This document shows, piece by piece, positions 5,263 through 61,456 of a stretch of DNA of 64,000 nt. The notes under the pieces are model-generated. The model was not told the origin of the DNA. It saw only the letters and a list, made by a program, of their open reading frames with translations, and did no database searches. Source of the DNA: Acidimicrobiia bacterium (GTDB taxonomy: Bacteria; Actinomycetota; Acidimicrobiia; IMCC26256; PALSA-555); the NCBI GenBank assembly GCA_009694295.1, contig SHVJ01000001.1, forward strand, positions 7,286 through 71,285. The letters are read 5' to 3'. How positions within the stretch are numbered: position 1 is the first letter of the stretch; the number at the start of each line of letters is the position of its first letter. The translations under genes and the position numbers were made by a program.

Positions 5263-5267
5263 CGTTC

Positions 5268-7374: not shown

Positions 7375-7383
7375 GGTTGACGA

Positions 7384-8594: not shown

Positions 8595-8595
8595 A

Positions 8596-8601: not shown

Positions 8602-8608
8602 TGGGCAC

Positions 8609-9402: not shown

Positions 9403-9441
9403 ATTCGTCACAAAGGTCAAGAGCTAGATCAAGAGCAGTTG

Positions 9442-10212
9442 CTAGGGCCAGGAAAGCCCAAATTGTGTGGAGTCGACGACTCTTCCGGTGACGCCGTCTG
9501 CGCGTTGGGCTGACAGGTAGGCGACGGCGGGCACAACGGCGTCGGGTTCCTTCCAGTCGTGGTCGGGGCCGAGCTCTTTGGCCGCGTGCTCGGTCTTCAC
9601 TGCGCCGGGACGCAGCGCGTTGATGGCGATGTTGAACGGCGTGAGCTCGACGGCCAGCGCGGTGCTGAACTTCTCCAACGCCGCCTTGGCGACGGAGTAG
9701 ATGAAGTAGCCGGGCGGCATGAACGGACCACTCGCCGGATCGGCCGCGCCCGACGAGATGTTGATGATGCTCCCGCCGCCACGCTCGCGCATCGGCTCGA
9801 CGGCGGCCTTCGTGCTCAGGTAGAGGCTGCGCACGTTCACGCGCATCGACGTGTCCCACTGCTCCGGCGTGCTGTCGACGAACGCGGCTCGCACCTCGGT
9901 CATCGAGTTGTTCACAAGCACGTCGAGCCCGCCGAACTCGGTGACGGCGGCGTCGATCAGCGCTTGCAGATCGGCCGCGTTGCCGATGTCACAACGCTGC
10001 GCGACAGCGGTGCCGCCAGCAGCCCGAATGGCTTCGACGGTTTCGTGGATCGTCCCGCCAAACCCGTCGGGACTCTTCGTCTCCGTACGCGCGGCAACAA
10101 CGACAGACGCGCCCAAATCCGCCAGACCAATTGCTAGTCCACGTCCAATTCCTCGCGACGCACCGGTGACGATCGCAACCTTGCCGTCAAGACGATTGGA
10201 AGTGGACATCAT
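9442..10212 (-). CDS. SDR-family oxidoreductase
   Basis: GKVAIVTGASRGIGRG, NNS and YSVAKAAL (YxxxK). The start is ambiguous among ATG 10212, ATG 10209 and GTG 10221. Confidence 0.85.
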   Translation of the reverse strand: MMSTSNRLDGKVAIVTGASRGIGRGLAIGLADLGASVVVAARTETKSPDGFGGTIHETVEAIRAAGGTAVAQRCDIGNAADLQALIDAAVTEFGGLDVLVNNSMTEVRAAFVDSTPEQWDTSMRVNVRSLYLSTKAAVEPMRERGGGSIINISSGAADPASGPFMPPGYFIYSVAKAALEKFSTALAVELTPFNIAINALRPGAVKTEHAAKELGPDHDWKEPDAVVPAVAYLSAQRADGVTGRVVDSTQFGLSWP

Positions 10213-10243
10213 CGGCCGCACTTGTCTCTTGGTTTTGGGCAGA

Positions 10244-10282
10244 GTTCGTTCGCTGAGGCCGGAGGCCTTTCAGCGAACGAAC
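10244..10282. terminator. Palindromic hairpin element (copy Y) downstream of the SRPBCC gene
   Basis: GTTCGTTCGCTGA (10244-10256) pairs perfectly with TCAGCGAACGAAC (10270-10282) around a GGCC-GGA-GGCC core. Confidence 0.55.
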
Positions 10283-10283
10283 A

Positions 10284-10751
10284 CTAGGAAAGGATCTCCT
10301 CGATGCGTTCGAGCGTCTTCTCCATGCTCTTCGCGGCGTGGCTTCCGCCCTTGGCCACCATGCCCTTCATGCCGGCCTCCTGGGAGATGTCCCAGCTCTC
10401 GCGAACCTTGGTGCCTCCGGCAACGGGCTCGAGCTCGTAGCGCCAGATGCGGCCGCCGAACCTCTTGAAGCGCTTCGGCCGCGGCTGCCACGCGATCTTC
10501 CGGTTCTCCTCGAACTCGACGACCGTGTTCCTCATCGTGTACGGGATACCCATCTTCATCTTCATGTCGAACGTAGAACCGAGCTTCAAGCGCTCCGACT
10601 TCTCGGACGGGTCGCGCACCGTGCCGGATCCGTCGATCTCACGATGACGGGCCGGATCGGCAAGGAGCTCGAAGATCTTCTCGGGTGGCGCGGGGATGAC
10701 CCGCTCCACGCTCACTGCTTCGTTTGCGTCAGTCACGTTTTCATCAGCCAT
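10284..10751 (-). CDS. SRPBCC (START / polyketide-cyclase-like) ligand-binding protein
   Basis: VERVIPAPPEKIFELLADPARHREIDGSG is a typical SRPBCC N-terminus. Start ATG 10751 with the TAGCCT box upstream. Confidence 0.75.
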   Translation of the reverse strand: MADENVTDANEAVSVERVIPAPPEKIFELLADPARHREIDGSGTVRDPSEKSERLKLGSTFDMKMKMGIPYTMRNTVVEFEENRKIAWQPRPKRFKRFGGRIWRYELEPVAGGTKVRESWDISQEAGMKGMVAKGGSHAAKSMEKTLERIEEILS

Positions 10752-11955
10752 GGGAACGCAGGCTAGACCTGTCGCCGTGGCTCCGCCCTTCGACCGCAAT
10801 GTGCTCCTCGCCAAGGGTCAGGAGCGCGCCGGTGGTCTCACCGATCTCGGGACTGGTCAATTCCTCGAGGGCATGGACCGGTTCGTCGACTCACTGAACG
10901 CCGAGGCACGGCTCAACGACATCGGCCGCTTCATCGCCGAGGAGCGCGTGCTCCTGCACGTCGTCAACCGGCTCCGCTACGTGCACGACCGCGAGCAGTA
11001 CCCCGAGATCGCGTCGGTCGAAGTGGTGACGCCCGTGTTCATCGTCGGTCTACCCCGAACCGGCACCACGATCTTGCACGACATCCTCAACCAGGATCCC
11101 GCCAACCGCGCGCCGCTCACGTGGGAGCTGATGTTTCCGTCGCCACCGCCCGAGGCGTCGCTCGGCAACAACGATCCGCGCGTCACCGCGTGCCAGGCCA
11201 CCATCCCGAGTGGCGACGAGCGATCGACATTGTTCGCCGCGATGCATCCGATGGGAGCCACGCTCTCGCAGGAATGTGTCGTGATGATGGGCGAAGCGAT
11301 GTGTACCGCGCTCTTCCACAACCAGTTCCGCGTGCCCTCGTACCAGGATTGGGTGGACACTGGGGCCGACTGGTCGGCCGTGTACGCGTTTCATCGCCGT
11401 CAGCTTCAACACCTGTGGTGGCACAAGCCCGGCGATCGTTGGATGCTCAAGACGGGTGGGCACATGTGGGGTCTCGAGCAGCTGCTGGCCGAGTACCCCG
11501 ACGCCCGCATCGTGTTCACGCATCGCGACCCGGTGAAGTCGATGACGTCGTACGCCAGCCTCACCGCGCTGGTGCGCTCAGCCGGGAGCGACGACGTGGA
11601 CCCGATCGAGATCGCGGCCGACTGGACCGCGCGCCTGAAGATGGTGCTCGAACGGTCGATGGCGGTGCGCGCGGCGCGCGAGTACCCCGACGCCGTGTTC
11701 TACGACATGTATTTCTCCGACTTCGTTGCCGACCAGTTCGCCGAGATCGAGAAGATCTACGACGCCCTCGACCTGCCGATGTCGGACGAGGGCGCCGCGG
11801 CCATGCGCGAGTACATCGCGGACCACCCGAAGGGCAAGGACGGCATCCACCGCTACGCACCCGAGGAGTTCGGGGTCGACCCCGACACCGTGCGCCGTGA
11901 GTTCGCGCCGTACATCGAACGGTTCGGACTCGAGCCGGAACCCGAGGACACCTGA
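10750..11955 (+). CDS. PAPS-dependent sulfotransferase family protein (paralogue 1)
   Basis: GLPRTGTTILHDIL 5'-phosphosulfate-binding loop. Paralogue of 60182..61456. Start uncertain: ATG 10750 shares the CCATGG with the divergent gene, and GTG 10777 is an alternative. Confidence 0.75.
   Translation: MGTQARPVAVAPPFDRNVLLAKGQERAGGLTDLGTGQFLEGMDRFVDSLNAEARLNDIGRFIAEERVLLHVVNRLRYVHDREQYPEIASVEVVTPVFIVGLPRTGTTILHDILNQDPANRAPLTWELMFPSPPPEASLGNNDPRVTACQATIPSGDERSTLFAAMHPMGATLSQECVVMMGEAMCTALFHNQFRVPSYQDWVDTGADWSAVYAFHRRQLQHLWWHKPGDRWMLKTGGHMWGLEQLLAEYPDARIVFTHRDPVKSMTSYASLTALVRSAGSDDVDPIEIAADWTARLKMVLERSMAVRAAREYPDAVFYDMYFSDFVADQFAEIEKIYDALDLPMSDEGAAAMREYIADHPKGKDGIHRYAPEEFGVDPDTVRREFAPYIERFGLEPEPEDT
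10760..10765 (-). promoter_or_regulatory. -10-like TANNNT box (TAGCCT on minus strand), 8 nt before ATG 10751
   Basis: Minus strand reads TAGCCT-GCGTTCCC-ATG. Confidence 0.4.
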
Positions 11956-30183: not shown

Positions 30184-31425
30184 GTGGGCGACGTGATGGT
30201 CATTGACGGCGACGGCCACCTCATGGAGCCGCCCGACATGTGGTCGGCCCGCATGGACGCCAAGAAGTGGGGTGACTCGATCCCGCACTTCGACGCTGAA
30301 GGCACCTTCTGGATCGGCGGCGTCGCTCGGATCGGTGGTCCGGGGATGCACGAGGAGGTCGCCCGGATCAACGGCGTGACCGTCGAGGAGCTCTTCGAGT
30401 CGTACGCGCGCACGACGTCGTCGACCGACACCGCGGGTGGGCACGACCCGCAGGCGCGCCTGCGGTCGATGGACGCCGACGGGATCGACGTGGCCGTGAT
30501 GTACCCCACGAAGTCGCTCCAGTTCGGGCCGAGCGACCCGATCCCTGCGATCCGCGACAACCCCGAGTTCGTGCTCGCCTGCCACCGCGCGTACAACGAC
30601 TGGGCGTCCGAGTACTGCACGACCGCGCCCGACCGACTGTTCGCCATCGCCGCGGTACCGCTCCAGGACATCGCGCTCGCGGTCGCGGAGGCCGAGCGCG
30701 CCGTCAACACGCTCGGGCTCAAGGGCGTGGCCATCCGGCCGTCGGCCACCCAATTTTCCGATGCTGGGGACGACCTGCCGTTCAGCAACCGCGTGTACGA
30801 CCCGTTCTGGGCCGCGTGCCAAGACCTCGACATCCCGGTTGGCCTCCACCCGATCGTGCACGTCGACACGCCGGGCGCGTGTCGCAAGTTCGGCCTCGTG
30901 CGCGACAGTCCGAGCCTGAACATGACGAACTCGGCCGTCGACGAGAACCACGGTGGCTCAGCGATGGGTCAGGCGATCGGCAACCCCGTCGACATGATCG
31001 TGAGCATGGGGCGACTGCTCATGGGCGACGTGTGCGAGCGGTTCCCAAGGTTGCGATTCATCTTCTTGGAGTCGGGTGGCGGGTGGTGCGCGACGCAGCT
31101 CGAGCGCATGGACGAACAGCTCGAAGCGTTCCCGCTCGAAGGCCGTCGACTCTCGATGATGCCGAGCGAGTACTTCCGTCGGCAGTGCTACGTCTCGTTC
31201 GATCCGGGTGAGTGGAACCTCGCCGCGTCGGCGGAGTTCATCGGCGCCGATCGCATCATCTGGGCCTCGGACTACCCGCATCCCGAGTACACGCCCGAAG
31301 TCGTGCCGAAGCTGAAGGCGGCGATCTCCACGCTCCCCGCCGACTCACAGCGCAAGATCCTCGGCGCCAACGCGGCCGACGCCTACCGGTTGCCAGTCGG
31401 CCGCACGGCCTCGGTTGCACGATGA
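30184..31425 (+). CDS. Amidohydrolase-2 (ACMSD-type metal-dependent hydrolase/decarboxylase) family, paralogue 1
   Basis: VIDGDGHLMEPPDMW N-terminus and WASDYPHPE near the C-terminus. GAGGGGGG lies before the GTG start. Confidence 0.85.
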   Translation: MGDVMVIDGDGHLMEPPDMWSARMDAKKWGDSIPHFDAEGTFWIGGVARIGGPGMHEEVARINGVTVEELFESYARTTSSTDTAGGHDPQARLRSMDADGIDVAVMYPTKSLQFGPSDPIPAIRDNPEFVLACHRAYNDWASEYCTTAPDRLFAIAAVPLQDIALAVAEAERAVNTLGLKGVAIRPSATQFSDAGDDLPFSNRVYDPFWAACQDLDIPVGLHPIVHVDTPGACRKFGLVRDSPSLNMTNSAVDENHGGSAMGQAIGNPVDMIVSMGRLLMGDVCERFPRLRFIFLESGGGWCATQLERMDEQLEAFPLEGRRLSMMPSEYFRRQCYVSFDPGEWNLAASAEFIGADRIIWASDYPHPEYTPEVVPKLKAAISTLPADSQRKILGANAADAYRLPVGRTASVAR

Positions 31426-32585
31426 GCAAGCGGTCGGTCGAGATCGACACCAGCGATCTCGATCAGTGGTGTGGAAAGTCGATGGGGGGCGGGCAGCTGC
31501 GCGACCCGATCAGCAACACCGACATCCGCCGGTGGGTGCAGGGTATGCAGTACCCAAACCCACTGCATTACGACGACGACTACGCGGCGGCGAGCCGATT
31601 CGGGCGTCTCGTGGCGCCGCAGTCGTTCATGGTCAACTGCGACATCGGGCATGGGTCGATGCCGTCGGTGTTCGGCAAGATCCCGGGCACGCACATGATC
31701 TTCGGCGGCGACGAATGGTGGTTCTACGGACCGCGCGTCTTTGCCGGCGACCAGATCACGATCGAGCGTCAGCACCTCGACTACCGCGTGGCGGAGACGA
31801 AGTTCGCCGGACCCACGGTCTTCGGCCGCGGCGACAACACGCACCGCAACCAGCGCGGCGAAGAGGTGTCGAAGCAACGGTCGACATCGGTCCGTTACCT
31901 CGCCGAAGAAGCACGGAAGAGGGGGTTCTTCGGCGAGGCCGCGCCGCGCCCAACGTGGACTCGCGAGCAGCTCGACGACCTCGCGGCGCGGCGCATGGAT
32001 TGGATCCGCAGCGGCCTCGGCGGCACGTCGCCGAGCTTCGCGGATGTCGACCTCGGCACGAAGCTCCCCACGTGCCCGATCGGTCCGCACACCACGCAAT
32101 CGTTCGTGACCGAGTGGCGCTCGTTCATCTCGGTGGTGTGGGGTTCGACACGCGACCTCTGGGCCGACTTCAGCGGCCTCGACGGTGGGTGGCTGCCCGA
32201 GATGTCGCGCGACGAGGAGGCAGCAAAAATCAACCCGGCACTCGGGGACGGCATGTACGCCGGCGCGTCGCGGGGGCATACAGATGGCGACGCCGCGGCG
32301 ATCATCGGGATGCCCCGGGGCTACGGCTACGGGGCATCGATGGGAGCGTGGGCGTTGAACTACGTGGCGTTCTGGGCCGGTGACGCTGGCTTCATCCGCC
32401 ACTCGAACATCCAATATCGGTTCCCACCGTTCGAAGACGACGCCACGCTGCTCGACGGTGAAGTGGTGAACAAGGAGCGCGACACGACGCTCGGTGTTCC
32501 GATTGTGACCGTCGACCTCACGATGACGAACCAGGACGGCGCGGTGCTCGCCAAGGGACCCATCGAGGTGGAGCTCCCCGAGTGA
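31422..32585 (+). CDS. Double hotdog MaoC-like (FAS1-type dehydratase N-domain) hydratase
   Basis: IRRWVQGMQYPNPLHYDDDYAAASRFGRLVAPQSF and a C-terminal hotdog segment. ATG 31422 overlaps the upstream stop as ATGA. Confidence 0.75.
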   Translation: MSKRSVEIDTSDLDQWCGKSMGGGQLRDPISNTDIRRWVQGMQYPNPLHYDDDYAAASRFGRLVAPQSFMVNCDIGHGSMPSVFGKIPGTHMIFGGDEWWFYGPRVFAGDQITIERQHLDYRVAETKFAGPTVFGRGDNTHRNQRGEEVSKQRSTSVRYLAEEARKRGFFGEAAPRPTWTREQLDDLAARRMDWIRSGLGGTSPSFADVDLGTKLPTCPIGPHTTQSFVTEWRSFISVVWGSTRDLWADFSGLDGGWLPEMSRDEEAAKINPALGDGMYAGASRGHTDGDAAAIIGMPRGYGYGASMGAWALNYVAFWAGDAGFIRHSNIQYRFPPFEDDATLLDGEVVNKERDTTLGVPIVTVDLTMTNQDGAVLAKGPIEVELPE

Positions 32586-50511: not shown

Positions 50512-50517
50512 TACCCT
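50512..50517 (+). promoter_or_regulatory. -10-like TANNNT box (TACCCT), 6 nt before ATG 50524
   Basis: TACCCT-CTGCCG-ATG. Confidence 0.45.
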
Positions 50518-50523: not shown

Positions 50524-52104
50524 ATGCCGGGGTGGAACTTCGCTGCTGTGTGGCACGGGATCGCTCAGGCGGTCCCCGACCGCGACGCGCTCGTATGCGG
50601 CGATCGGCGCGTGTCGTGGGGTGAGTGGGACGATCGCGCCGCGCGACTGGCCTCGTACCTCTGGGACCACGGGCTGCGGCCCGGCGACAAGGTGGCGCTC
50701 GCCTGCACGAACCGACCCGAGTATCTCGAGACGTACTTCGCGGCACTGAAGCTCGGGTGTGCCCCGGTGAACGTGAACTACCGGTATGTGGTCGAAGAGG
50801 TGCGGTACGTCCTCGACAACTCCGACGCCAAGGCAATCGTGCACGATCCCGACTTTGCCGCCACCGTGCGGGCCGCGATCGCCGAGCTCCCCGCGGATCG
50901 CCGCCCGTTGCGGCTGGAAACAGGAGCGCCATACGAAGACGCGATCGCTGCCGCATCACCCAATGGTGAATGGCAAGCGCGCGAACCCGACGGCGACGAC
51001 CTTGTCTTCCTCTACACCGGCGGCACCACCGGCATGCCGAAGGGCGTCATGTGGCGCAACGACGACCTGTACCACGCGAACTGGGAGATGGCGCGCCCGG
51101 GTACGACGCCACCCGACCCGATTGCTGCTGCTGCCGCCGGGAAACGCACAGGCACGTGCTTGCCGGCGTGCCCGCTGATGCACGGCACGGGCATGAACAT
51201 CGCGCTCAGCACGCTGGCCGGTGCGGCCACGGTTGTGCTGATTGAACGGATCGGCCTCGACCCTGAGCTTCTCTGGAGCGAGATCGAACGCAACGACGTC
51301 GCCGTCCTCACCATCGTGGGCGACCCCTTCGCGCGCCCGTTGCTCGCCGCACTCGACAAGGAGCCGAATCGGTGGGATCTCTCGTGTCTGCGCGTGATCA
51401 CATCATCGGGCGCCACGTGGAGCCCGGAGGCGAAGTCGGGATTGCTGCGCCACTTGCCGACGGTTCGGCTCATCGACGCACTCGGCGCGTCCGAAGGCTT
51501 GATGACCCGCTCCGAATCCACCTCGAGCAGCGCGATCGCACCAGCCAGCTTTGCAGTCAGCGAGCGCGTGAAGGTGCTCGATGAACACACGGGCGCCGAG
51601 GTCGGCCAGGGAAGTGGTGAAGTCGGATTGCTCGGGGTGACCGGACACATCCCGCTCGGGTACTACAAGGACGACGCCAAGACGGATGCCACGTTCCGAG
51701 TCGTGGACGGCGTGCGCTATTCGATCCCTGGCGACTATGCGACCGTCGAATCCGACGGCACGATCCGACTGCTCGGTCGCGGTTCTGCGTGCATCAATAC
51801 CGGTGGCGAGAAGGTGTACCCCGAGGAAGTCGAGGGCGTGCTGCGCGAGCATCCAGACGTCTTCGACTGCGTGATCGTGGGCGTCCCCGACGAGCGCTTC
51901 GGCGAGATGGTGGTCGCGTTGGTGCAACCAGCACCCGGCACTCCGCTCGACGACGCGGCGATTGCCGAGTGGAGTCGCGATCGCATCGCGGGTTACAAGC
52001 GGCCGAAGCGTTGGTTCGTCGTCGAGTCGCTCGATCGCAACGCTGCCGGCAAGGCGAACTACCCGAAGCTGCGAGCCCTCGCCGCCGACCTGGTCGGGAC
52101 CTAG
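50524..52104 (+). CDS. Acyl-CoA synthetase (FadD-like AMP-binding enzyme)
   Basis: FLYTGGTTGMPKGVMW and a GEKVYPEEVE region, 526 aa. Confidence 0.9.
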   Translation: MPGWNFAAVWHGIAQAVPDRDALVCGDRRVSWGEWDDRAARLASYLWDHGLRPGDKVALACTNRPEYLETYFAALKLGCAPVNVNYRYVVEEVRYVLDNSDAKAIVHDPDFAATVRAAIAELPADRRPLRLETGAPYEDAIAAASPNGEWQAREPDGDDLVFLYTGGTTGMPKGVMWRNDDLYHANWEMARPGTTPPDPIAAAAAGKRTGTCLPACPLMHGTGMNIALSTLAGAATVVLIERIGLDPELLWSEIERNDVAVLTIVGDPFARPLLAALDKEPNRWDLSCLRVITSSGATWSPEAKSGLLRHLPTVRLIDALGASEGLMTRSESTSSSAIAPASFAVSERVKVLDEHTGAEVGQGSGEVGLLGVTGHIPLGYYKDDAKTDATFRVVDGVRYSIPGDYATVESDGTIRLLGRGSACINTGGEKVYPEEVEGVLREHPDVFDCVIVGVPDERFGEMVVALVQPAPGTPLDDAAIAEWSRDRIAGYKRPKRWFVVESLDRNAAGKANYPKLRALAADLVGT

Positions 52105-52156
52105 CGACTGCTTCTGCGCAGCATCTCGTCGCCGGCCCGATGATCGTGGGTGTCCT

Positions 52157-53185
52157 TCACTGATCTGCAGTGACCTCAGGGTCCCAATCGCGGGTCTCGA
52201 GCAGCTCCTTCACGCGGCTGACGAACGAGGCGGCATACGCGCCGTCGATCGCTCGATGATCGAACGAGAGACCGAGCATCCCCACCGGATGGATGGCAAT
52301 CCCCTCGCCGCCATCACCCGTCGGGATCATCACCGGGCGCCGACGCACGGTGTCGGTCGCCAGGATCCCCACTTGCGGTTGGTTGATGATCGGTACCGAG
52401 ATGAGCGTGCCGCTCGGACCGGGGTTGGTGATCGTGAACGTCCCGCCGGCCACTTCGTCAGGCTGCAGGCGATTGCTCCGGGCGCGCTCGGCGAGGTCGG
52501 CAACCGCGCGGGCGATGTCGACCAGTGGCCGACGTCCGGCATCGTGCACGACAGGGACGATCAACCCTGCGTGGTCGAGATCGACGGCGAAACCCAGGTG
52601 CACGTCGTGGCGAACGAGCAGACCGTCGTCGACGACCGACGCGTTCACGTGCGGAAACTCAGCGAGCGCGTCGACCACGGCGCGCGCCACGAACGGCAGA
52701 TAGGTGAGCGAGAAGCCCTCGCGTTCGCGCCACGCAGCCCCGTGCACGCGGCGAACGCGATCGACCCGTTCGAAGTCGGTCTCGACAGCACAGAAGGCGT
52801 GCGCGGCTGTGGTGATCGACTCGCGGAGGTTCCCAGCGATGCGCCGCCGCATCGCGCTGAAGGGCACGAGCGTCTCGCGCTCGGTCGCAACGGTCGGTGG
52901 GCTCGAAACGGGCAACGCTGGTTCCGGCTCCGGCGTCGACGGTGGCAGAGCTTCGGATTCCGGAACGGGTTCGGGCGCCACCGCCAGTCGGCTCGGGGCG
53001 TCGGTCCGGATCGGAACCGGCGGCGGGGGCTCGCTCGCCGTCCGGGCGGCGACAGCAGCCTGCACGTCGTCGCGCGTGATCCGTCCGCCGGCGCCGGTTC
53101 CCTCGATCGTCGACGCGTCGAGGCCTTGCTCTTCGAGCAATCGCCGGACCACCGGTGAGTGAAAGCCGCTCCTGGCACGCCGCAT
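52157..53185 (-). CDS. 2-oxoacid dehydrogenase E2 acyltransferase lacking a lipoyl domain (E3-binding domain plus catalytic core only)
   Basis: Starts directly with the peripheral-subunit-binding domain SPVVRRLLEEQGLDASTIEGTGAGGRITRDDV, then a Pro/Ala/Glu linker and a catalytic core with DHRAIDG. ATG 53185 has the TACGGT box 7 nt upstream. Confidence 0.8.
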   Translation of the reverse strand: MRRARSGFHSPVVRRLLEEQGLDASTIEGTGAGGRITRDDVQAAVAARTASEPPPPVPIRTDAPSRLAVAPEPVPESEALPPSTPEPEPALPVSSPPTVATERETLVPFSAMRRRIAGNLRESITTAAHAFCAVETDFERVDRVRRVHGAAWREREGFSLTYLPFVARAVVDALAEFPHVNASVVDDGLLVRHDVHLGFAVDLDHAGLIVPVVHDAGRRPLVDIARAVADLAERARSNRLQPDEVAGGTFTITNPGPSGTLISVPIINQPQVGILATDTVRRRPVMIPTGDGGEGIAIHPVGMLGLSFDHRAIDGAYAASFVSRVKELLETRDWDPEVTADQ

Positions 53186-53192
53186 CCCGATC

Positions 53193-53198
53193 ACCGTA
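53193..53198 (-). promoter_or_regulatory. -10-like TANNNT box (TACGGT on minus strand), 7 nt before ATG 53185
   Basis: Minus strand reads TACGGT-GATCGGG-ATG. Confidence 0.45.
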
Positions 53199-53226
53199 TC
53201 CAGAGCGAGCCCTGGGGCGCGTGCCC

Positions 53227-55356
53227 ATGCGGGACGTATCCTCCCCGACGTTGAAACTCCGTGAATGGATCACCAGGCATCACCGCGGCGTCCCCCTGGC
53301 TGAGGCCGTCGACGACTTTCGCCTCGCGTGCATCTCACGGGCGATCGACGACCGCGAGATCACGCTGCGCCAGCAGAGCCGCGTCTTCTTCCAGATCTCG
53401 GGTGCCGGCCATGAGGCGCTGCTGCTCGCGTTCGCTCGGGAGCTGCGCGCGGGCTACGACTGGTTCTTCCCCTACTACCGCGACCGCGCGCTCGTGCTGG
53501 GGCTCGGCGTCACGCCGTACGAGCTCCTCCTCCAGGCGGTCGGGTCCTCCGACGACCCCGCATCGGGTGGTCGTCAGATGCCGTGTCACTGGGGAGACAC
53601 CGAGCGACACATCGTCACGCAGTCGAGCGCAACGGGGAGCCAATGCCTGCCCGCGATCGGGTGCGCGGAAGCGTCGAGGTACATCGTGCGCCGCAATCTT
53701 CCCGGCTGCGTTGCGTACGGAGATGAAGTCACGTACGTGTCTCTCGGTGAGGGCGCCACGTCGCAAGGCGAGTTCTGGGAGAGCTTGACCACCGCGTGCC
53801 GACTCGCACTCCCGGTGCTCTACGTCGTCGCCGACAACGGGTACGCCATCTCGACGCGTTCCAACGAGCAGGCGCCCGCGCCGATCTCAGAGCTCGTCCT
53901 CGGGTTCCGCGGGCTGCGCGTCACCAAGCTCGACGGCCGCGACTACTTCGAGAGTCGGAGCAAAGCCGCCGAGGCAGTGGCGCGCGTGCGTTCCGGTGAA
54001 GGGCCCGGTCTCGTGCACGCGCTTGTGACGCGCCCGTACTCACACTCGCTGTCGGACGACCAGAAGAAGTACCGCCCACACGCCGAGCTCGAAGACGAAG
54101 CCGAGCACGACCCGATCAAGGTGCTCGAGGAAGAGCTCATAGGGTGTGGCGCGCTCAGCCAGGAGCAGGCCACCGAGATCCACGAGAGCGCGGTCGCCCT
54201 CGTTGCCGAGGCCGCGCGCCAGGCATTGGAAGCGCCGCGGCCCGATCCCGAGACCGTGAGGGAGCACCTGTTTGCGCCACCCACGGTCACGGAGGTGCCA
54301 CCCGACCCGGCGCCGCCCGGTGACGGAACCGAGGAGGAGGTCGTGACGTTCGGCGAGGCCATCCGCCTCACGTTGCACGAGCAGATGGCGCTCGACGAAC
54401 GCATCCGCGTGTTCGGCGAAGACGTTGCCGACGGCGACCCGCACGCGCTCGAGGAGGTTCCGGGCAAGGGCGGCGTATTCGGCATCACGTTCGGTCTCCA
54501 ACGCGAGTTCGGCCAGTCGCGTTGCTTCAACACGCCGCTCGCCGAGGCGAACATCGTCGGGCGCGCGGTTGGCGAGGCGATTCGCGGTCTGCGCCCGAGC
54601 CCGGAGATCCAGTTCTTCGATTACATCTGGACCGCCATGCAACAGATCAAGACGGAGGCCACCACGATCCGCTGGCGCAGCAACGGTGCGTTCTCGTGCC
54701 CGATGGTGCTGCGCGTACCGATCGGCGGATACCTCACGGGCGGTTCGATCTGGCATTCGCAATGCGGCGAGTCGATCTTCGCCCACATCCCCGGGCTCCA
54801 CGTGGTGTTCCCGTCGCGCGCGCGTGACGCGGCGGGCCTGCTGCGCACCGCGTTCCGCGGCGAGGATCCGGTGCTGTTCCTCGAGCACAAGCACCTCTAC
54901 CGGCAGGGCTACAACCGCGACCCGATGCCGCCGCCCGACTGGTTGCTGCCGTTCGGTCGCGGCACTGTGGTGAACCCAGGGAGCGACGTCACGGTCGTGA
55001 CGTGGGGAGCCACCGTGCATCGCGCACAGCTCGCGGCACACGAGCTCGACCCCGAGGGTTGGAAAGTGGAGATCATCGACCTGCGTTCGATCGTGCCCTG
55101 GGACCACGAGATCGTGGCCGAGTCGGTAGCCAAGACGGGCCGCGTGCTCGTGCTCCACGAGGACACGCACACCGCCGGCTTCGGTGGCGAGATCGCGGCG
55201 TGGATCGCCGACGAGTGCTTCGAGGATCTCGACGCGCCAGTCATGCGCCTCTCCGCGCTCGACACCCCCGTCGGCTACGAACCGACCCTCGAAGACGCGA
55301 TCCTCCCCCAGGTCGCCGACATCCAGCGCGACCTGACGACTCTTCTTGCCTACTGA
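53227..55356 (+). CDS. Fused alpha/beta E1 component of a TPP-dependent 2-oxoacid (or acetoin-type) dehydrogenase
   Basis: About 709 aa. The alpha part has FQISGAGHEA ... YYRDRA ... and the beta part has RCFNTPLAEANIVG ... VVFPSRARDAAGLL. The start is taken as ATG 53227 and is uncertain. Confidence 0.85.
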   Translation: MRDVSSPTLKLREWITRHHRGVPLAEAVDDFRLACISRAIDDREITLRQQSRVFFQISGAGHEALLLAFARELRAGYDWFFPYYRDRALVLGLGVTPYELLLQAVGSSDDPASGGRQMPCHWGDTERHIVTQSSATGSQCLPAIGCAEASRYIVRRNLPGCVAYGDEVTYVSLGEGATSQGEFWESLTTACRLALPVLYVVADNGYAISTRSNEQAPAPISELVLGFRGLRVTKLDGRDYFESRSKAAEAVARVRSGEGPGLVHALVTRPYSHSLSDDQKKYRPHAELEDEAEHDPIKVLEEELIGCGALSQEQATEIHESAVALVAEAARQALEAPRPDPETVREHLFAPPTVTEVPPDPAPPGDGTEEEVVTFGEAIRLTLHEQMALDERIRVFGEDVADGDPHALEEVPGKGGVFGITFGLQREFGQSRCFNTPLAEANIVGRAVGEAIRGLRPSPEIQFFDYIWTAMQQIKTEATTIRWRSNGAFSCPMVLRVPIGGYLTGGSIWHSQCGESIFAHIPGLHVVFPSRARDAAGLLRTAFRGEDPVLFLEHKHLYRQGYNRDPMPPPDWLLPFGRGTVVNPGSDVTVVTWGATVHRAQLAAHELDPEGWKVEIIDLRSIVPWDHEIVAESVAKTGRVLVLHEDTHTAGFGGEIAAWIADECFEDLDAPVMRLSALDTPVGYEPTLEDAILPQVADIQRDLTTLLAY

Positions 55357-55375
55357 GGCAGTCCCTACTCGCCGG

Positions 55376-55381
55376 TAACCT
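55376..55381 (+). promoter_or_regulatory. -10-like TANNNT box (TAACCT), 6 nt before ATG 55388
   Basis: TAACCT-GAGTTC-ATG. Confidence 0.45.
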
Positions 55382-55387
55382 GAGTTC

Positions 55388-57037
55388 ATGACCCCGGGGT
55401 TCGATCGGACGGCGATGCTCGGTCGGCTGGCCGACGAGCCGTTCGACGTGCTGGTGATCGGCGGCGGCATCACCGGGACCGGTTGTGCGCTCGACGCCGC
55501 GAGCCGCGGGCTACGCACCGCGCTCGTCGAACGCGACGACTTCGCGTCGGGCACCTCGTCGAAGTCGTCGAAGCTCGTGCACGGCGGGATCCGCTACCTC
55601 CAGCAGCGCGAGTTCGGGCTGGTGTACGAGGGCCTGCGTGAACGTCATATTGCACTCGAGAACGCGCCGCACCTCGTGCGCCTGCTGCCGTTCCTCATCC
55701 CGATCTTCGCTCGCGACGGGCTCATCGATCGTCGAATCGCGCGCGCTCTCGGCGTCGCGATGTGGATGTACGACATTGCCGGCGGCTTCCGCATCAAGAA
55801 GAAGCACCAACGCATCAGCGCCGACGAAGCGATCGCTCACATGCCCACGCTGCGCCGGGACAACGTTGCCGGGTCGTACCTCTACTACGACGCGCACGCC
55901 GACGACGCGCGGCTCACACTGTGTCTTGCCCGCACGGCTGCTTCACACGGCGCGGCCGTCGCCAATTACACGCGTGTCACCGGCCTCCTGAAGGACGACG
56001 CCGGGATGGTGCGCGGCGCGCGGGTCGTCGCCAACGATCGCGAGATCGAAGTGCGAGCCCGGGTGGTGATCAACGCCGCCGGAGTCTGGGCCGACGAGGT
56101 GCGCGCATACGACGAAGGTGCCGACCCTGAGTCCATCCGCCCGGCCAAGGGCATCCACATCACCGTGCCGTGGGAGAAGGTCCGCAACGACATCGCGGCG
56201 ATCGTCCCCGTGCCCAAAGACCGGCGCTCGGTGTTCGTCGTGCCGTGGGGCGACTTCACGTACATCGGTACCACCGACACTGATTACGACGGCCCGATCG
56301 ACGACCCGCAGTGCACTCCTGCCGACGTCGAGTACCTGCTGAACGCGGTCAACCGCGCGATCGTCGAGCCGCTGACCCCGAGCGATGTGCTCAGTACGTG
56401 GGCCGGGTTGCGACCGTTGCTGCGGGAAGCAGGGAGCACGCGCACCGCCGACCTGTCGCGTCGGCACAAGGTTCGGGTTTCCGAGACCGGGGTGATCACG
56501 ATCACCGGCGGCAAGCTCACGACATACCGCCGCATGGCGGCCGACACGGTTGACCAAGCGGCGCGCATCGTGGGGCAGCGAAGGGCGAAGTGCCGCACGA
56601 AGAACCTCCAGCTCCTCGGCGCCGTCGGATTCGAAGTGCCCCCCGACACGCCCGAGCCGAGCCTGCACGATCACCTCGCCGGCCGCTTCGGCACCGAGGC
56701 GGCCGAGGTCCACGAGCTGCTGCGCGCCGACCCCTCGCTCGGTGAGGCGCTCGTCCCCGGGCTGCCCTACCTGCGCGCAGAGGCCATCCACGCGGTTCGC
56801 CACGAGATGGCCACCACCCTCGACGACGTGCTCTCGCGCCGCACCCGGGCCCGGCTGCTGGCGCGCGACGCGTCCGCCGACGCGGCCACGACGGTCGCCG
56901 AGCTGCTCGGGCCCGAGTTGGGCTGGTCCGCCGACGAAGTGGCCCGGCAGGCCGCGACCTACCGAGCTGCCGTCGCCCACGAGCGCGAGTCGGCCGGTCT
57001 CCCCGAGACCGCCCTCGACGCCACACTGGGAGCGTGA
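55388..57037 (+). CDS. glpD: FAD-dependent glycerol-3-phosphate dehydrogenase
   Basis: FDVLVIGGGITGTGCALDAASRGLRTALVERDDFASGTSSKSSKLVHGGIRYL. Confidence 0.9.
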   Translation: MTPGFDRTAMLGRLADEPFDVLVIGGGITGTGCALDAASRGLRTALVERDDFASGTSSKSSKLVHGGIRYLQQREFGLVYEGLRERHIALENAPHLVRLLPFLIPIFARDGLIDRRIARALGVAMWMYDIAGGFRIKKKHQRISADEAIAHMPTLRRDNVAGSYLYYDAHADDARLTLCLARTAASHGAAVANYTRVTGLLKDDAGMVRGARVVANDREIEVRARVVINAAGVWADEVRAYDEGADPESIRPAKGIHITVPWEKVRNDIAAIVPVPKDRRSVFVVPWGDFTYIGTTDTDYDGPIDDPQCTPADVEYLLNAVNRAIVEPLTPSDVLSTWAGLRPLLREAGSTRTADLSRRHKVRVSETGVITITGGKLTTYRRMAADTVDQAARIVGQRRAKCRTKNLQLLGAVGFEVPPDTPEPSLHDHLAGRFGTEAAEVHELLRADPSLGEALVPGLPYLRAEAIHAVRHEMATTLDDVLSRRTRARLLARDASADAATTVAELLGPELGWSADEVARQAATYRAAVAHERESAGLPETALDATLGA

Positions 57038-58542
57038 CGCCAATTTCTCTGATGGGGGCCCCGACTCCGCCGATCGCGTTCGGGGGCGATGCCGCCGACG
57101 TGACCGCGCGACTCAATGCCGCGTTCGTCGACGTCGACGCGGCGCTGCTGGAGCGTCTGCGGGGCGCGTGCGGAGAGGTCACGGTCGAGGCCGCAGCGCT
57201 CGCGGAAGCGAGCCGAGACTGGTGGCCGCTGGCGATGGTGTGGGCGCTGGATGGCCAAGTCGCCGCACGGGCCGCGGCAGTCGCGCGCCCGACATCGGTC
57301 GCCGAGATCGCCGCGGTGTTGCAGATCGCCAACGAGTCGCGCGTGCCCGTGACGCCGGCCGCCGGGAGGTCTGGCGTGTGTGGCGCGAGCGTGCCGATCC
57401 ACGGCGGCATCGTGCTGGATCTGTGCGCGTTGTCCGGCATCGTCGATGTCGACCACGAATCGATGGTGCTCAACGTGCGTGCGGGAACGTTCGGCACACC
57501 GCTCGAAGACGAGCTGCGTTCGTCGTATGGCGTCACGGTGGGGCACTGGCCCCAGTCGATGGACCTCTCGACCGTGGGTGGCTGGCTCGCGTGCCGCGGC
57601 GCCGGTCAGCACTCCACCCGGTACGGAAAGATCGAAGACATCGTCGTCGGGCTCGACGTGGTGCTCGCCGACGGTCGCACGATCACCACCGGTGGTGCAC
57701 CACGGGCCGCGGTTGGCCCAGACCTCACCCAGCTGTTCGTCGGCAGCGAGGGAACGCTCGGCGTGATCACGAGCGCGCGACTCAAGCTCCACCCGACGCC
57801 GGTCGCCACCCGCACAGCTGCGTTCGGCTTCCCGTCGTTTCGCGAAGGCCTCGACGCGTGTCGACGACTCATGCATCGCGGCGCAACTCCCGCCGTCCTT
57901 CGCCTCTACGACGCGATCGAAGGTGAGCGGAACTTCCAGACCGGTGGGCACCACCCACTGCTCGTCCTCGACGAGGGCGATCCGACGATCATCGATGCGG
58001 TGATGGCGGTAGTCGCCGAAGAGTGTTCGTCCGCCGCACCGCTCGACGCCGCGCTCGTCGACCGCTGGCTCGAGCACCGCAACGACGTCAGCGCGGTCGA
58101 AGCGCTGATCTCGAAGGGGTACGTGGTCGACACCATGGAGATCGCGGCACGCTGGCGTGATCTCCCGGCGATCTACGATGCCGCGAGTTCGGCGATCGCC
58201 GGCGTCGAGCACACGCTCGTGGCGTCGGCACATCAGTCGCACTCCTACGGCGACGGCGCCTGCCTCTACTTCACGTTCGCCGGGCAGCCACCGGTCGATG
58301 GACGCGACGCTTACTACCGCGCCGCGTGGGATGCGGGCACGAACGCGGTCCTCGCCAATGGCGGCGCGCTCAGCCATCACCACGGGATCGGTCTCAACCG
58401 GGCCCGGTTCGTACGCGAAGCACTGGGCGACGCGTTCGACGTCCTCGTCGCCGCGAAGCACGCCCTCGACCCGAACGGCATCCTCAACCCCGGCAAGCTC
58501 GGACTCCCCAGCCCGTTCGGCCCATCCCCCGCCTGGCCATGA
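57034..58542 (+). CDS. FAD-linked oxidase (VAO/GlcD superfamily, alkyl-DHAP-synthase-like)
   Basis: VTPAAGRSGVCGASVP ... GTVGGWLACRGAGQHSTRYGKIEDIV ... HHHGIG. The GTG start overlaps the glpD stop as GTGA. Confidence 0.8.
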   Translation: MTPISLMGAPTPPIAFGGDAADVTARLNAAFVDVDAALLERLRGACGEVTVEAAALAEASRDWWPLAMVWALDGQVAARAAAVARPTSVAEIAAVLQIANESRVPVTPAAGRSGVCGASVPIHGGIVLDLCALSGIVDVDHESMVLNVRAGTFGTPLEDELRSSYGVTVGHWPQSMDLSTVGGWLACRGAGQHSTRYGKIEDIVVGLDVVLADGRTITTGGAPRAAVGPDLTQLFVGSEGTLGVITSARLKLHPTPVATRTAAFGFPSFREGLDACRRLMHRGATPAVLRLYDAIEGERNFQTGGHHPLLVLDEGDPTIIDAVMAVVAEECSSAAPLDAALVDRWLEHRNDVSAVEALISKGYVVDTMEIAARWRDLPAIYDAASSAIAGVEHTLVASAHQSHSYGDGACLYFTFAGQPPVDGRDAYYRAAWDAGTNAVLANGGALSHHHGIGLNRARFVREALGDAFDVLVAAKHALDPNGILNPGKLGLPSPFGPSPAWP

Positions 58543-59978
58543 TTCTGGTCGTCGACGTGGGGACGTCGTCGGTTCGTGGTGTGGTGGTCGACGGCGATGC
58601 GCGGATCGTGGCGGAGCACCGGCGGCCGTTGTTGCCGTCGTCGCCGGCCCCCGGACTCGTGGAGTTCGACGCCGCCGCGATGGCCGACGTCGTGCTCGAC
58701 GTGGCGCGCGCCGCTATCGATGAAGTCGGCGCCGTCGCCGCGGTGGGCGTCGCCAACCAGCGCGGCTCGGCCATCGTGTGGGATCGCGCCACCGGCGAGC
58801 CACTTGGACCGGGTATCGGGTGGCAGGACCTCCGCACCGTCGTGCGCTGCCTCGAGCTCCGCGGTTCCGATGTGCGCGTTGGGCCAAACCACTCGGCAAC
58901 CAAGTTCGAGACGCTGCTCGACGCGGCCGATCCCGACCGCAGTCGCGATCTGTGCGTGGGCACCGTCGACTCGTGGGTTGCGTGGACCCTTTCGGGCGGC
59001 GCGGTACACGTGACCGATGCGTCGAACGCGCTCATCACCGGCATGCGCACCGCGACCAACGAGACCTGGGACGCGTCCGTACTGGAGATCCTGCGCATCC
59101 CGGAACCTGCGTTGCCCACGGTCGTCGACTCGTCCGGCGAGGTGGGCGAGGCGAGTGCTTTGCCGGGCGCGCCGCCTATCACCGGATTGCTGGGCGATCA
59201 GCAAGCGTCGCTGCTCGGCCAGGGCTGCGTGCACCACTGCGACGCCAAGATCACCTTTGGTACCGGCGGAATGCTCGATGTCGTGCTCGGCCCCGATCGA
59301 CCGAAGTTCGATCTCCGCGGCGATGCTGGGACGTTCCCGATCGTGACGCGCCGCGTCGACGGCACCGACCTGTGGGGTCTCGAAGCGGTGATGCTGTCGG
59401 CCGGCACGAACATCGAGTGGCTGCGTGACGATCTCGGACTCGTGAGCTCGGCGGGGGAGACCGACGCGATCGCCGCAAGCTGCGCCGACACCGGCGACGT
59501 TTGGTACGTACCCGCACTCCTCGGTCTCGGCACGCCCCGCTGGGACTTCGGAGCCCGCGGCACATTGGTCGGTCTCACACGCGGCACCGAGCGCGCCCAC
59601 GTGGTGCGCGCCGTGCTCGAAGGAGTCGCGCATCGAGGCGTCGATCTGATCGAAGCGGCCGAAGCCGATAGTGGCTGTCGCATCGAGGTCGTGCGGGTCG
59701 ACGGCGGGATGACGGCCAACACCACATTTCTTCAAGCGCTAGCCGACGCGGCACAACGTCCGGTGGAAGTCGCCCCCGTCCGCGAGGCCACCGCACTCGG
59801 CGCCGCGTTCGCGGCCGGTCCCGCCGTCGGACGCTGGGTCGACGACGACGCCGTCGCAGCAACATGGAGCCCCGGCGCGCGCGTCGATCCCCAGCGGTCC
59901 CTCGACCGCGATCGTTGGCGCGACGCGGTCGATCGCGCGGAGCACTGGCTCCCCGACCTTTCGGCGATCGACTTCTAA
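58539..59978 (+). CDS. FGGY-family carbohydrate kinase, glycerol-kinase-like
   Basis: MILVVDVGTSSVRGVVVD ... VGVANQRGSAIVWDRATGEPLGPGIGWQDLRT. ATG 58539 overlaps the upstream stop as ATGA. Confidence 0.85.
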   Translation: MILVVDVGTSSVRGVVVDGDARIVAEHRRPLLPSSPAPGLVEFDAAAMADVVLDVARAAIDEVGAVAAVGVANQRGSAIVWDRATGEPLGPGIGWQDLRTVVRCLELRGSDVRVGPNHSATKFETLLDAADPDRSRDLCVGTVDSWVAWTLSGGAVHVTDASNALITGMRTATNETWDASVLEILRIPEPALPTVVDSSGEVGEASALPGAPPITGLLGDQQASLLGQGCVHHCDAKITFGTGGMLDVVLGPDRPKFDLRGDAGTFPIVTRRVDGTDLWGLEAVMLSAGTNIEWLRDDLGLVSSAGETDAIAASCADTGDVWYVPALLGLGTPRWDFGARGTLVGLTRGTERAHVVRAVLEGVAHRGVDLIEAAEADSGCRIEVVRVDGGMTANTTFLQALADAAQRPVEVAPVREATALGAAFAAGPAVGRWVDDDAVAATWSPGARVDPQRSLDRDRWRDAVDRAEHWLPDLSAIDF

Positions 59979-60012
59979 GTCACTCGGCTCCCGTCACTCG
60001 GCCGTCACCGGG
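59979..60012. repeat. Degenerate tandem repeat GTCACTCGGCTCCC / GTCACTCGGCC / GTCACCGGG
   Basis: It starts immediately after the kinase stop (TAA 59976-59978). Confidence 0.7.
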
Positions 60013-60168
60013 TTGCACAAGCCGTGTCCCGCCCTGCAGTCCGTCCCGGACGCGCGGCGATGTCGGATCCCCCTCCACGCTCCTCGTCGCGGTGGCCGGG
60101 CGGTGGGCTGCGGCGGTGCACCCCGTGCCGCACCGTCGCAGCCCTCAGTTCTGCAGGAAGCTCGCCGG

Positions 60169-60174
60169 TACGCT
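60169..60174 (+). promoter_or_regulatory. -10-like TANNNT box (TACGCT), 7 nt before GTG 60182
   Basis: TACGCT-GCCGCTC-GTG. Confidence 0.45.
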
Positions 60175-60181
60175 GCCGCTC

Positions 60182-61456
60182 GTGAGCCTCCGTCCGGCGT
60201 CGATCCACATCGATGACCTCGCCGACCCGCAGTTCACGCCGCAGATCGCCGAGATGATGCAGGCGGTCGAGCCGATCGCGGCCGCGCTCGACTTCGCACC
60301 CGATGCGCTCATCGTTCAAGCGCAGGCCGACACCGGACTCGACCACTTCGGCGACGAGGCCTTCCGCGAACCACTTGCCGTCATCCTCGGAGCGCTCGAC
60401 GCGCAACCGGAACGCTCAGCGATGGGACGGGTGAGCACGCACGCTCAGGTGTCGCAGCTCTTGCGAAACCGCCTGCTCGTCGAGGATCTCGTGCGCCAGC
60501 ACCCGGAGATCCTCGACGAGAAGATCGAACGGCCGATCGTGATCGCCGGTCAGCCGCGTACCGGCACGACACACCTGCACAACCTCATCGCGTCCGACCC
60601 CGCCATGCGGTCATTGCCTTACTGGGAAAGCCTCGAACCCGTGCTGCCAGCCGACGAGCGGGCCATGGTGGCCGCCGGTGGCGAAGACCCGCGCCGCGAG
60701 CGCACCGGTGCCGGACTCGGGATCCTCGACGAGGCGATGCCGAACTTCAAGCGCATGCACGAGATGACGGTCGATCACGTGCACGAAGAGATCCAACTGC
60801 TCGCGATCGACTTCTCCACGATGCTCTTCGAGACGATGGGCGTGCTGCCCGCGTGGAAGGAGTGGTACGTCACGCACGACCAGACACCCCATTACGAGTA
60901 CCTGCGCATGGTGCTCCAAGTGCTCCAGTGGCAGCGAAGCGTCGGCAGCCGATGGGTGCTCAAGTCGCCGCAGCATCTCGAGCAGTTTCGGGCCCTGGTG
61001 CGTATCTTCCCCGACGCCACGTTTGTGGTCCCGCACCGCGATCCCGTGGCGGTGATCGCATCGAACGCCACGATGCTGGCGTACACCGCGCGTCTCAGCC
61101 ACTCGATCGTCGACCCTGTGTACATCGGTCAGTACTGGTCGGATCGCATCGAGGAGATGCTGCGGGCGGGCATGCGCGACCACGATCTGCTTCCGTCCGA
61201 TCGCACGATCGACGTGGCCTTCGACGAGTTCATGGCCGACGACGTAGCCATGGTCGAACGCATCTACGAGGTCGCCGAGCAGCCGTTCACCCCCGACGTG
61301 CGAGCGGCTATGGACGCATTCATGGTGGAGCACCCTCGCGGACGTCACGGAGGAGTGCTCTACGACCTCCAAGGTGATTTCGACATCGACCCCGCCGAAC
61401 GCCGAGAGGCAATGCGGGACTACACCGACCGCTTCAACGTGACCTTGGAGAGCTAG
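60182..61456 (+). CDS. PAPS-dependent sulfotransferase family protein (paralogue 2)
   Basis: IVIAGQPRTGTTHLHNLI 5'-PSB loop, collinear with 10750..11955. The 5' part of ORF 59864 overlaps the kinase gene and the intergenic region. Confidence 0.8.
   Translation: MSLRPASIHIDDLADPQFTPQIAEMMQAVEPIAAALDFAPDALIVQAQADTGLDHFGDEAFREPLAVILGALDAQPERSAMGRVSTHAQVSQLLRNRLLVEDLVRQHPEILDEKIERPIVIAGQPRTGTTHLHNLIASDPAMRSLPYWESLEPVLPADERAMVAAGGEDPRRERTGAGLGILDEAMPNFKRMHEMTVDHVHEEIQLLAIDFSTMLFETMGVLPAWKEWYVTHDQTPHYEYLRMVLQVLQWQRSVGSRWVLKSPQHLEQFRALVRIFPDATFVVPHRDPVAVIASNATMLAYTARLSHSIVDPVYIGQYWSDRIEEMLRAGMRDHDLLPSDRTIDVAFDEFMADDVAMVERIYEVAEQPFTPDVRAAMDAFMVEHPRGRHGGVLYDLQGDFDIDPAERREAMRDYTDRFNVTLES

Follow-up and report, generated by a model that had tools for sequence, protein, structure and literature searches.

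Textbook 2-oxoacid dehydrogenase complexes are built around an acyltransferase (E2) that carries its own lipoyl arm. Here we consider an E2 gene without such an arm, together with the dehydrogenase (E1) gene lying head to head with it, in a 64-kb stretch of DNA (referred to below as the window) from a metagenome-assembled genome of the class Acidimicrobiia with a GC content of ~0.67. The E2 gene occupies 52157..53185 on the minus strand and encodes a protein of 342 residues, identical to MSO78035.1, in which Pfam recognises only E3_binding and 2-oxoacid_dh. The peripheral-subunit binding domain (E3/E1 binding; residues 9-42, 53060..53161, minus strand; PF02817, 50.4 bits) is followed by a Pro/Ala-rich, flexible linker of variable length (residues 43-102, 52880..53059, minus strand) and by a catalytic domain of the CAT fold (residues 103-331, 52193..52879, minus strand; PF00198, 218 bits) with the E2 catalytic motif DHRAIDG, including His310 and Asp314, at 52244-52258. 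Just downstream of the catalytic domain, alignment to the Corynebacterium glutamicum E2 of the pyruvate dehydrogenase (PDH) complex, E2p, reveals a three-residue insertion, Trp334-Asp-Pro (52178-52186, minus strand). Thus, a preliminary description of this DNA, according to which the E2 opens directly with the E3-binding domain and has a full catalytic core, agrees with the Pfam assignment; of the parts of a canonical E2, the CAT-fold catalytic domain with DHRxxDG and the binding domain are present and the N-terminal lipoyl domain is absent, Biotin_lipoyl (PF00364) having no match in the protein. The E1 gene, on the plus strand from 53251 (TTG) or 53227 (ATG) to 55356, encodes a single chain of 701 or 709 residues, in which the alpha and beta subunits of a heterotetramer-type E1 are fused (E1_dh, Transket_pyr and Transketolase_C in Pfam). 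Downstream of it follow genes for a GlpD-like dehydrogenase, a flavoenzyme resembling alkyl-dihydroxyacetone-phosphate (alkyl-DHAP) synthase and an FGGY kinase.

Because a missing domain is only as credible as the gene start, the start signals need attention. A -10-like box, TACGGT (53193..53198, minus strand), precedes the E2 ATG at 53185 by 7 nt, in the arrangement of a leaderless-type start. The pattern TANNNT is rare in the window: it occurs 60 times on both strands, compared to 226 +/- 14 in dinucleotide-preserving shuffles (an approximately four-fold depletion), and at this frequency the chance of a box 6-8 nt before a given start is ~0.0014. The position of the box and the rarity of the pattern together lend strong support to ATG 53185 as the true E2 start, in keeping with the short N-terminus argued for earlier from the same box. 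GTG 53194 was rejected as an alternative, being located inside the -10 box, with orthologues beginning at the Met equivalent to the ATG. On the opposite strand, E1 probably starts at TTG 53251 rather than ATG 53227, since its orthologues begin (M/V)KLREWLTGHHRG and a second -10-like box, TATCCT (53237..53242, plus strand), is found 8 nt upstream of the TTG. With this E1 start, the divergent region between the two genes is 65 bp long and contains two back-to-back -10 boxes; with the ATG the gap would be 41 nt. Either way, the 41-65 nt between the E2 and E1 starts leave no room for a lipoyl domain of ~80 residues, as had been pointed out in the preliminary description.

We also looked for the domain elsewhere, with a hidden Markov model (HMM) of the lipoyl domain built from 72 canonical relatives and run on six-frame translations. 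None of the six frames of the 64-kb window gave a lipoyl domain (best E = 2.7), not even in the region upstream of the E2 start where a corrected reading frame might have supplied one, and none was detected in the six frames of loci L001-L006 or at the loci around ten related lipoyl-less E2 genes, up to ~10 kb on each side. As a positive control, the model recovers 70 of 80 canonical E2 loci (the ten that it misses are cut by contig ends) as well as both lipoylated E2s that partner fused E1s in alphaproteobacteria (discussed below). Pfam scans of the 47 open reading frames (ORFs) of the window returned no E3 and no lipoyl carrier, which agrees with the earlier statement that neither is encoded in the window.

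The short form of the protein is shared by its relatives. All of the 19 aligned members of its clade begin MRxSRGGF(L/H/Q)SP(V/A)VRRLL, directly at the binding domain, and almost none of the relatives with at least 58% identity has a lipoyl domain. Within this 19-member alignment the binding-domain residues R14, R15, G34, R35 and R38 are invariant, as are TFTITNPGP, DHRAxDG, and, within the latter, His310 and Asp314. Against core-clade relatives, the ratio of nonsynonymous to synonymous substitution rates (dN/dS) lies between 0.15 and 0.30 in the binding domain and between 0.15 and 0.25 in the catalytic domain, both being under purifying selection; the Pro/Ala linker, with values of 0.4-1.1 and a length that ranges from ~6 to ~150 residues among relatives, is almost neutral. 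The core clade is recovered with a bootstrap value of 94% in a neighbour-joining (NJ) tree. The peptide AAHAFCAVE is a signature of the lipoyl-less clade, and a metagenome scan with this clade-specific pattern yielded four loci; L087 (3301-3327) was dropped as a clade member, since it has no E2 similarity at E <= 1e-20 and is probably a chance match. Short E2 entries of 50-57% identity were likewise rejected as a wider lipoyl-less family, as they are interspersed among canonical E2s in the tree and at least one of them (P0081) is truncated by a contig end. The possibility, raised at the outset, that relatives are normally lipoylated proteins and the truncation is unique to this assembly does not hold, given that 19/19 relatives are short and the E2s of the wider set of neighbourhoods are lipoyl-less too. 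Judged by these comparisons, the loss of the lipoyl domain is real, evolutionarily fixed and conserved across Acidimicrobiia.

Conservation extends to the pairing with E1. We examined 11 neighbourhoods, namely the window, L001, L003, L004, L005, L091, L092, L093, L099 and two JGI loci (without DNA), and in all 11 of them E1 lies head to head with an E2 of 263-402 residues that has only the binding and catalytic domains, with no E3 gene adjoining the pair in any of the 11. A survey of co-occurrence had been proposed for the lipoyl-less E2 with both the E1 fusion and glpD genes, and the two halves of it came out differently: the link to the fused E1 held in 11/11 neighbourhoods, whereas no glpD trio was found beside the pair outside the core clade. 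In the core clade the pair is neighboured by glpD-VAO-FGGY-sulfotransferase; in L091 and L093 it adjoins WS/DGAT-AurF-patatin, in L092 PutA, and in three other loci it is flanked by acyl-CoA dehydrogenases, short-chain dehydrogenases and ferredoxin. We note that the E2s of L091 (9065-9859) and L093 (9016-9807) are, as called, only 263-264 residues long with almost no linker and have a deletion of ~9 residues in the catalytic domain, at residues ~152-160 of the window E2; their called starts are located within the binding domain, and the reading frames may have been called too short.

The fused E1 is common and strongly conserved in Acidimicrobiia, where more than 120 orthologue clusters of 672-728 residues and 74-93% identity were found. 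Its thiamine-diphosphate motif, GEG...DNGYAIS, aligns with GEG...NNGYAIS of the human branched-chain 2-oxoacid dehydrogenase (BCKDH), and its alpha-part His273 (54043-54045, plus strand) and Ser274 align with His291 and Ser292 of the human BCKDH alpha chain. In the beta part, the His of a WHSQ motif (residue 510 of the full-length chain; 54754-54756, plus strand) aligns with His128 of the Geobacillus beta chain. Reductive acylation of the lipoyl domain depends on the residues equivalent to BCKDH His291-alpha and Geobacillus His128-beta. The alpha part scores higher against branched-chain enzymes (150 bits for the Thermus branched-chain enzyme E1b and 108 bits for human BCKDH) than against PDH (85 and 68 bits).

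As to the origin of the E2, the window protein is 55% identical to the canonical Acidimicrobiia E2 P0053 and, at 78 of the 108 positions where canonical E2s show at least 90% conservation, has kept the conserved residue. Its segment ETRDWDP aligns with ETANFEG of C. glutamicum E2p, so that Trp334-Asp-Pro stands in place of Phe-Glu-Gly, and D333, W334 and E337 are invariant both in the lipoyl-less clade and in the canonical E2s of Acidimicrobiia. The window E2 thus goes back to the lipoylated E2 of its own class (sucB/dlaT-type, next to lipB-lipA), of which it is a paralogue that has lost the lipoyl domain. For that canonical E2 we considered 80 loci (L007-L086), which are Acidimicrobiia species representatives among the matches listed, all with <=55% identity to the window E2; the scan behind them used an alignment that mixed lipoyl-less and canonical E2s with shared peptide patterns, and no member of the lipoyl-less clade is among the matches listed. 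In 80/80 of these loci a LipB-LipA fusion gene follows the lipoylated E2, and in 0/80 is there an alpha/beta E1 within 10 kb of it. It is a single gene in which LipB (octanoyltransferase) and LipA (lipoyl synthase) are joined, and in L006 (1153-2874) it encodes 573 residues. The only lipoylated E2 found in the Acidimicrobiia loci thus sits with lipoylation genes and away from the alpha/beta E1, and on account of this location it looks like a shared lipoyl hub. As a separate observation, the canonical locus L024 has two adjacent long ORFs (6422-10550) with a lipoyl domain each, possibly tandem E2-type genes.

Among the systems described before, OdhA, or Kgd, of the hybrid PDH-ODH (2-oxoglutarate dehydrogenase) complex of Corynebacterium and Mycobacterium comes closest in concept: like the window E2, it has an E2-type catalytic domain without a lipoyl domain of its own, and it uses the lipoyl groups of E2p in trans (bioRxiv 10.1101/2020.07.24.212647). 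OdhA belongs to the same phylum and is associated with the E2 C-terminal insertion; both OdhA and the insertion have been reported for Actinomycetales and Acidimicrobiia, the latter being the class of the window, and the three-residue aromatic insertion is what keeps actinobacterial E2p trimeric (bioRxiv 10.1101/2020.07.24.212647). The preliminary description had cited OdhA as a precedent from Actinobacteria; the precedent fits better than was claimed, considering that the window E2 itself carries the insertion. The architecture is nevertheless different. OdhA combines its E2o domain with a homodimeric E1o in one chain and has no peripheral-subunit-binding domain, whereas the window E2 is a separate polypeptide with a binding domain, and its E1 is of the heterotetramer type with alpha and beta chains fused, encoded on the opposite strand. 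Consistently, OdhA chains in the PDB are distant matches to the window E2 (<=65 bits). The closest solved structures are those of actinobacterial E2p (C. glutamicum AceF and M. tuberculosis DlaT, 204 and 198 bits; PDB 6zzi-6zzl, 9y7v), which resemble it in having a binding domain and the catalytic motifs, and in the aromatic-acidic insertion of three residues that precedes the C-terminal helix, but which have one to three N-terminal lipoyl domains and Phe in the insertion, compared to none and Trp in the window E2. A single-chain fused E1 like that of the window (37-38% identity) is found on Sinorhizobium meliloti pSymB and Paracoccus pAK1, in each case adjoining its own E2; there, however, the E2 gene is located downstream of E1 in the same orientation and encodes a protein of 378-396 residues with a lipoyl domain in addition to the binding and catalytic domains. 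The window E2 is only 36% identical to this lipoylated partner in Sinorhizobium and so is not its orthologue. The window protein is best described, in terms of its predicted domains, as an OdhA-like lipoyl-less acyltransferase that is free-standing, has kept its docking domain and is paired with a fused heterotetramer-type E1. OdhA papers apart, no relevant description of naturally lipoyl-less E2s or of fused E1s was found in the literature searched.

We propose that the pair constitutes a dedicated E1/E2 arm, probably of the branched-chain type, that uses in trans the lipoyl domains of the canonical E2, as OdhA does; we hold this to be somewhat better than an even bet. In this scenario, the binding domain of the lipoyl-less E2 would dock the fused E1, and probably E3 too. 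The E1 would decarboxylate a 2-oxoacid, by similarity most likely a branched-chain or short aliphatic one, and reductively acylate the lipoyl-lysine on the canonical E2 of the same cell. The acyl-lipoyl arm would then visit the active site of the lipoyl-less E2 for transfer of the acyl group to coenzyme A (CoA), after which E3 would re-oxidise the arm. A branched-chain or short aliphatic substrate is favoured because the E1 alpha part is closer to branched-chain E1s than to PDH E1s and because three loci have genes of acyl-CoA dehydrogenases on the flanks of the pair. The earlier suggestion had been that the E2 is either trans-lipoyl-dependent or lipoyl-independent and works with a fused E1; since the E1 keeps both lipoyl-acylation histidines, we favour the first of these options and disfavour the second.

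Several points weigh against this proposal. That one and the same genome holds the pair and a lipoylated E2, E3, AceE and OdhA is deduced from the class as a whole. Four residues of catalytic helix 1, N111, E118, H119 and R122, which are at least 96% conserved in canonical E2s, are changed in the core clade, and these changes could signal a changed partner or acceptor. The monophyly of all lipoyl-less E2s has an NJ bootstrap of only 31%, and the lipoyl domain may have been lost more than once. As for the substrate, the beta part of E1 does not distinguish between PDH and BCKDH structures, its scores against the two being similar.

If the arm is indeed provided in trans, one lipoyl hub would serve several E1 arms, and substrate-specific acyltransferases would be separable from the arm, which bears on the assembly and evolution of these complexes and on what reduced actinobacterial E2 cores to trimers. 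After OdhA, the locus suggests a second and different break of the rule that an E2 has its own arm, this time in Acidimicrobiia.

The arm might instead come from a different carrier, such as GcvH, a lipoyl protein encoded on its own or an E3 bearing a lipoyl domain at its N-terminus, a possibility we regard as unlikely. E3s with an N-terminal lipoyl domain are known from Streptococcus pneumoniae and Neisseria and exist alongside short E2s; in the acetoin/PDH-type cluster of S. pneumoniae the E2 has no lipoyl domain, the domain having moved to the N-terminus of the adjacent E3. The NCBIfam models of such short E2s, PRK11857 and PRK14843 (308 and 347 positions), match the window E2, at 128-154 bits that are well below their cut-offs. 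The search for carriers covered the loci around lipoyl-less E2s, which leaves some space for a carrier encoded elsewhere. Yet no lipoyl domain appeared in any frame of these loci and no neighbourhood has an E3 gene next to the pair, so that, unlike in the S. pneumoniae type with its lipoyl-bearing adjacent E3, neither an E3 nor a lipoyl domain lies within ~10 kb of the window pair; moreover, the class already has a documented trans-lipoyl system in OdhA and E2p.

Likewise unlikely in our estimation is a lipoyl-independent function, for which the E2 would have been recruited as a CoA-dependent acyltransferase acting on another acceptor, for example in lipid metabolism, with the binding domain serving only to dock E1 or some other partner. 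Loss of the lipoyl domain across the class, the lineage-specific changes in helix 1 of the catalytic domain together with the clade signature AAHAFCAVE, and the recurrence of lipid-related neighbours (acyl-CoA synthetase, WS/DGAT, patatin, PAP2 and the AGPS-like cassette, AGPS being the eukaryotic alkyl-DHAP synthase) would all be in line with such recruitment. It is difficult to reconcile with the retention of both lipoyl-acylation histidines in E1 and, in E2, of the full His/Asp/Thr catalytic set along with most of the canonically conserved positions, and the strict pairing with E1 would be pointless without acyl passage from E1 to E2, for which the lipoyl arm is the only known vehicle.

A third possibility is a mixed core, in which lipoyl-less and canonical E2s form heterotrimers, in the manner of the E3-binding protein E3BP in mammalian E2 cores, so that the arm is available within the trimer, the paralogue contributing above all a site for E1 to dock. 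The catalytic domains of the two E2s are 55-60% identical, their binding domains are near-identical and the DW(E/D) C-terminal insertion is common to both. But a pure adaptor would not need catalytic residues of its own, and those of the paralogue are under purifying selection; besides, this arrangement is a variant of arm-sharing in trans rather than a true alternative to it. As a separate explanation we rate it improbable.

Further readings involve the three genes downstream of E1. The GlpD-like FAD dehydrogenase (55388..57037, plus strand; DAO and DAO_C) scores 334 bits with PRK12266 against a cut-off of 360 and has its own -10-like box, TAACCT (55376..55381, plus strand), 6 nt before its ATG at 55388, which marks a separate transcription start of the trio. 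It is coupled through a GTGA overlap at 57034 to the flavoenzyme of the vanillyl-alcohol oxidase (VAO) family (57034..58542, plus strand; FAD_binding_4 and FAD-oxidase_C), and this in turn through an ATGA overlap at 58539 to the GlpK-like FGGY kinase (58539..59978, plus strand; FGGY_N/C); the box and the couplings are all as first described. The best PDB matches of the flavoenzyme are the alkyl-DHAP synthases 2uuu and 4bby, with relatives of D-lactate and glycolate oxidases scoring lower, and in alignment it keeps the AGPS catalytic residues Arg419 and Tyr578 and the HHH615-617 loop, which sets it apart from those oxidases. It has the FAD_binding_4 + FAD-oxidase_C fold in common with eukaryotic AGPS, from which it differs in lacking the N-terminal 130-200 residues and in being encoded, in bacteria, together with a GlpD-like dehydrogenase and an unusual FGGY kinase in a cassette of three genes. 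The kinase scores 373 bits with TIGR01311 against a cut-off of 590. Relative to E. coli GlpK, whose Arg83, Glu84, Tyr135, Asp245 and Phe270 we take to be the glycerol-binding residues, it has kept the Arg (83) and the Asp (245), and it has Gly for Glu84, His for Tyr135 and Met for Phe270. Since these pocket substitutions are conserved in the cassette orthologues, the one from Paracoccus included, free glycerol is an unlikely substrate of the kinase, and the substrate of the cassette is probably a polyol of another kind or a glycerol bearing a substituent. An attractive possibility is that it represents an alkylglycerol or ether-lipid pathway, and in that sense the AGPS-like cassette provides a lead towards bacterial ether-lipid or alkylglycerol metabolism; no description of a glpD / AGPS / FGGY trio was found in the literature searched.

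The trio also occurs alone. On a plasmid of Paracoccus jeotgali the three genes are found in the same order and overlapping, with no E1 or E2, next to genes for an ABC transporter, for alcohol and aldehyde dehydrogenases and for enoyl-CoA hydratases; the plasmid-borne flavoenzyme (L097, 6965-8497) is 53.5% identical to that of the window. Other close homologues of the flavoenzyme (47-51% identity) are located on replicons of Burkholderia, Cupriavidus and Arthrobacter. Because the pair is found elsewhere without the trio, and the trio on the P. jeotgali plasmid without the pair, the two units are separable, and we regard the glpD / AGPS-like / FGGY operon as an independent cassette and a chance neighbour of the pair in one lineage.

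One could nevertheless imagine that the armless E2, docked to E1, works as a CoA-dependent acyltransferase on a non-lipoyl acceptor and feeds the recurring lipid enzymes (acyl-CoA synthetase, WS/DGAT, patatin and PAP2) as well as the AGPS cassette, with the kinase and dehydrogenase maybe acting on alkyl- or acyl-glycerols. This would amount to an undescribed bacterial ether- or neutral-lipid pathway made in part of 2-oxoacid dehydrogenase components, an idea that we find quite improbable.

The preliminary description had instead tied the pair to the glycerol-related genes and suggested a C3 keto-compound derived from glycerol, glycerol 3-phosphate (G3P) or DHAP as the substrate. The two units are indeed adjacent and syntenic throughout the core clade (window and L001-L005), and in the window glpD begins after an interval of only 31 nt from the E1 stop. 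However, the core-clade loci are close kin, with E1s 77-84% identical, so that their synteny is weak evidence, and even among them L004 has three genes between E1 and the glpD-like gene (5785-7837), for an ApbE flavin transferase, a ferric-reductase-like membrane protein and a hypothetical protein of 130 residues. The change of neighbours outside the core clade, the plasmid-borne trio of P. jeotgali with the flavoenzyme homologues on other proteobacterial and actinobacterial replicons, and the separate -10 boxes, including that of glpD itself, speak against a common pathway, and we consider a joint function of the pair and the trio on such a C3 compound very improbable. Finally, mis-assembly or a decaying, truncated E2 pseudogene, brought to mind by short E2 database entries (<=55% identity) that include contig-end truncations such as P0081, is effectively refuted by a separate assembly of run SRR8561390, which reproduces window positions 51157-53481 and hence the junction at 100% identity, by the conservation of the start, the -10 box and the synteny, and by dN/dS values well below 1 in both domains.

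A few features around the two units deserve mention. Convergent with the E2 gene lies an acyl-CoA synthetase gene (50524..52104, plus strand; AMP-binding, NF005863, 597 bits), and an acyl-CoA synthetase near E2 is also present in L001, L003, L005 and L088, making it a syntenic neighbour. On the other side of the trio is the gene of a Sulfotransfer_3 protein (60182..61456, plus strand), which is syntenic in L001, L003, L004 and L005. It starts at GTG 60182, with a TACGCT box (60169-60174) 7 nt upstream; the ORF 59864-61456 as mechanically called is over-extended. Another Sulfotransfer_3 gene is found in the window at 10696-11955. A consensus promoter and terminator scan of the GC-rich window DNA gave nothing informative. 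TANNNT boxes precede not only E2 but also glpD, the sulfotransferase and the acyl-CoA synthetase (50512-50517), in each case at 6-8 nt from the start codon. That several of the few boxes in the window occupy such positions points to widespread leaderless transcription, which helps to fix gene starts in this genome. The window is, in addition, rich in lipid and oxygenase genes, including those of a fatty-acid hydroxylase (4432-5313), a PhyH dioxygenase (8462-9394), a cytochrome P450 (13257-14555) and a FAS1-type dehydratase (31212-32585).

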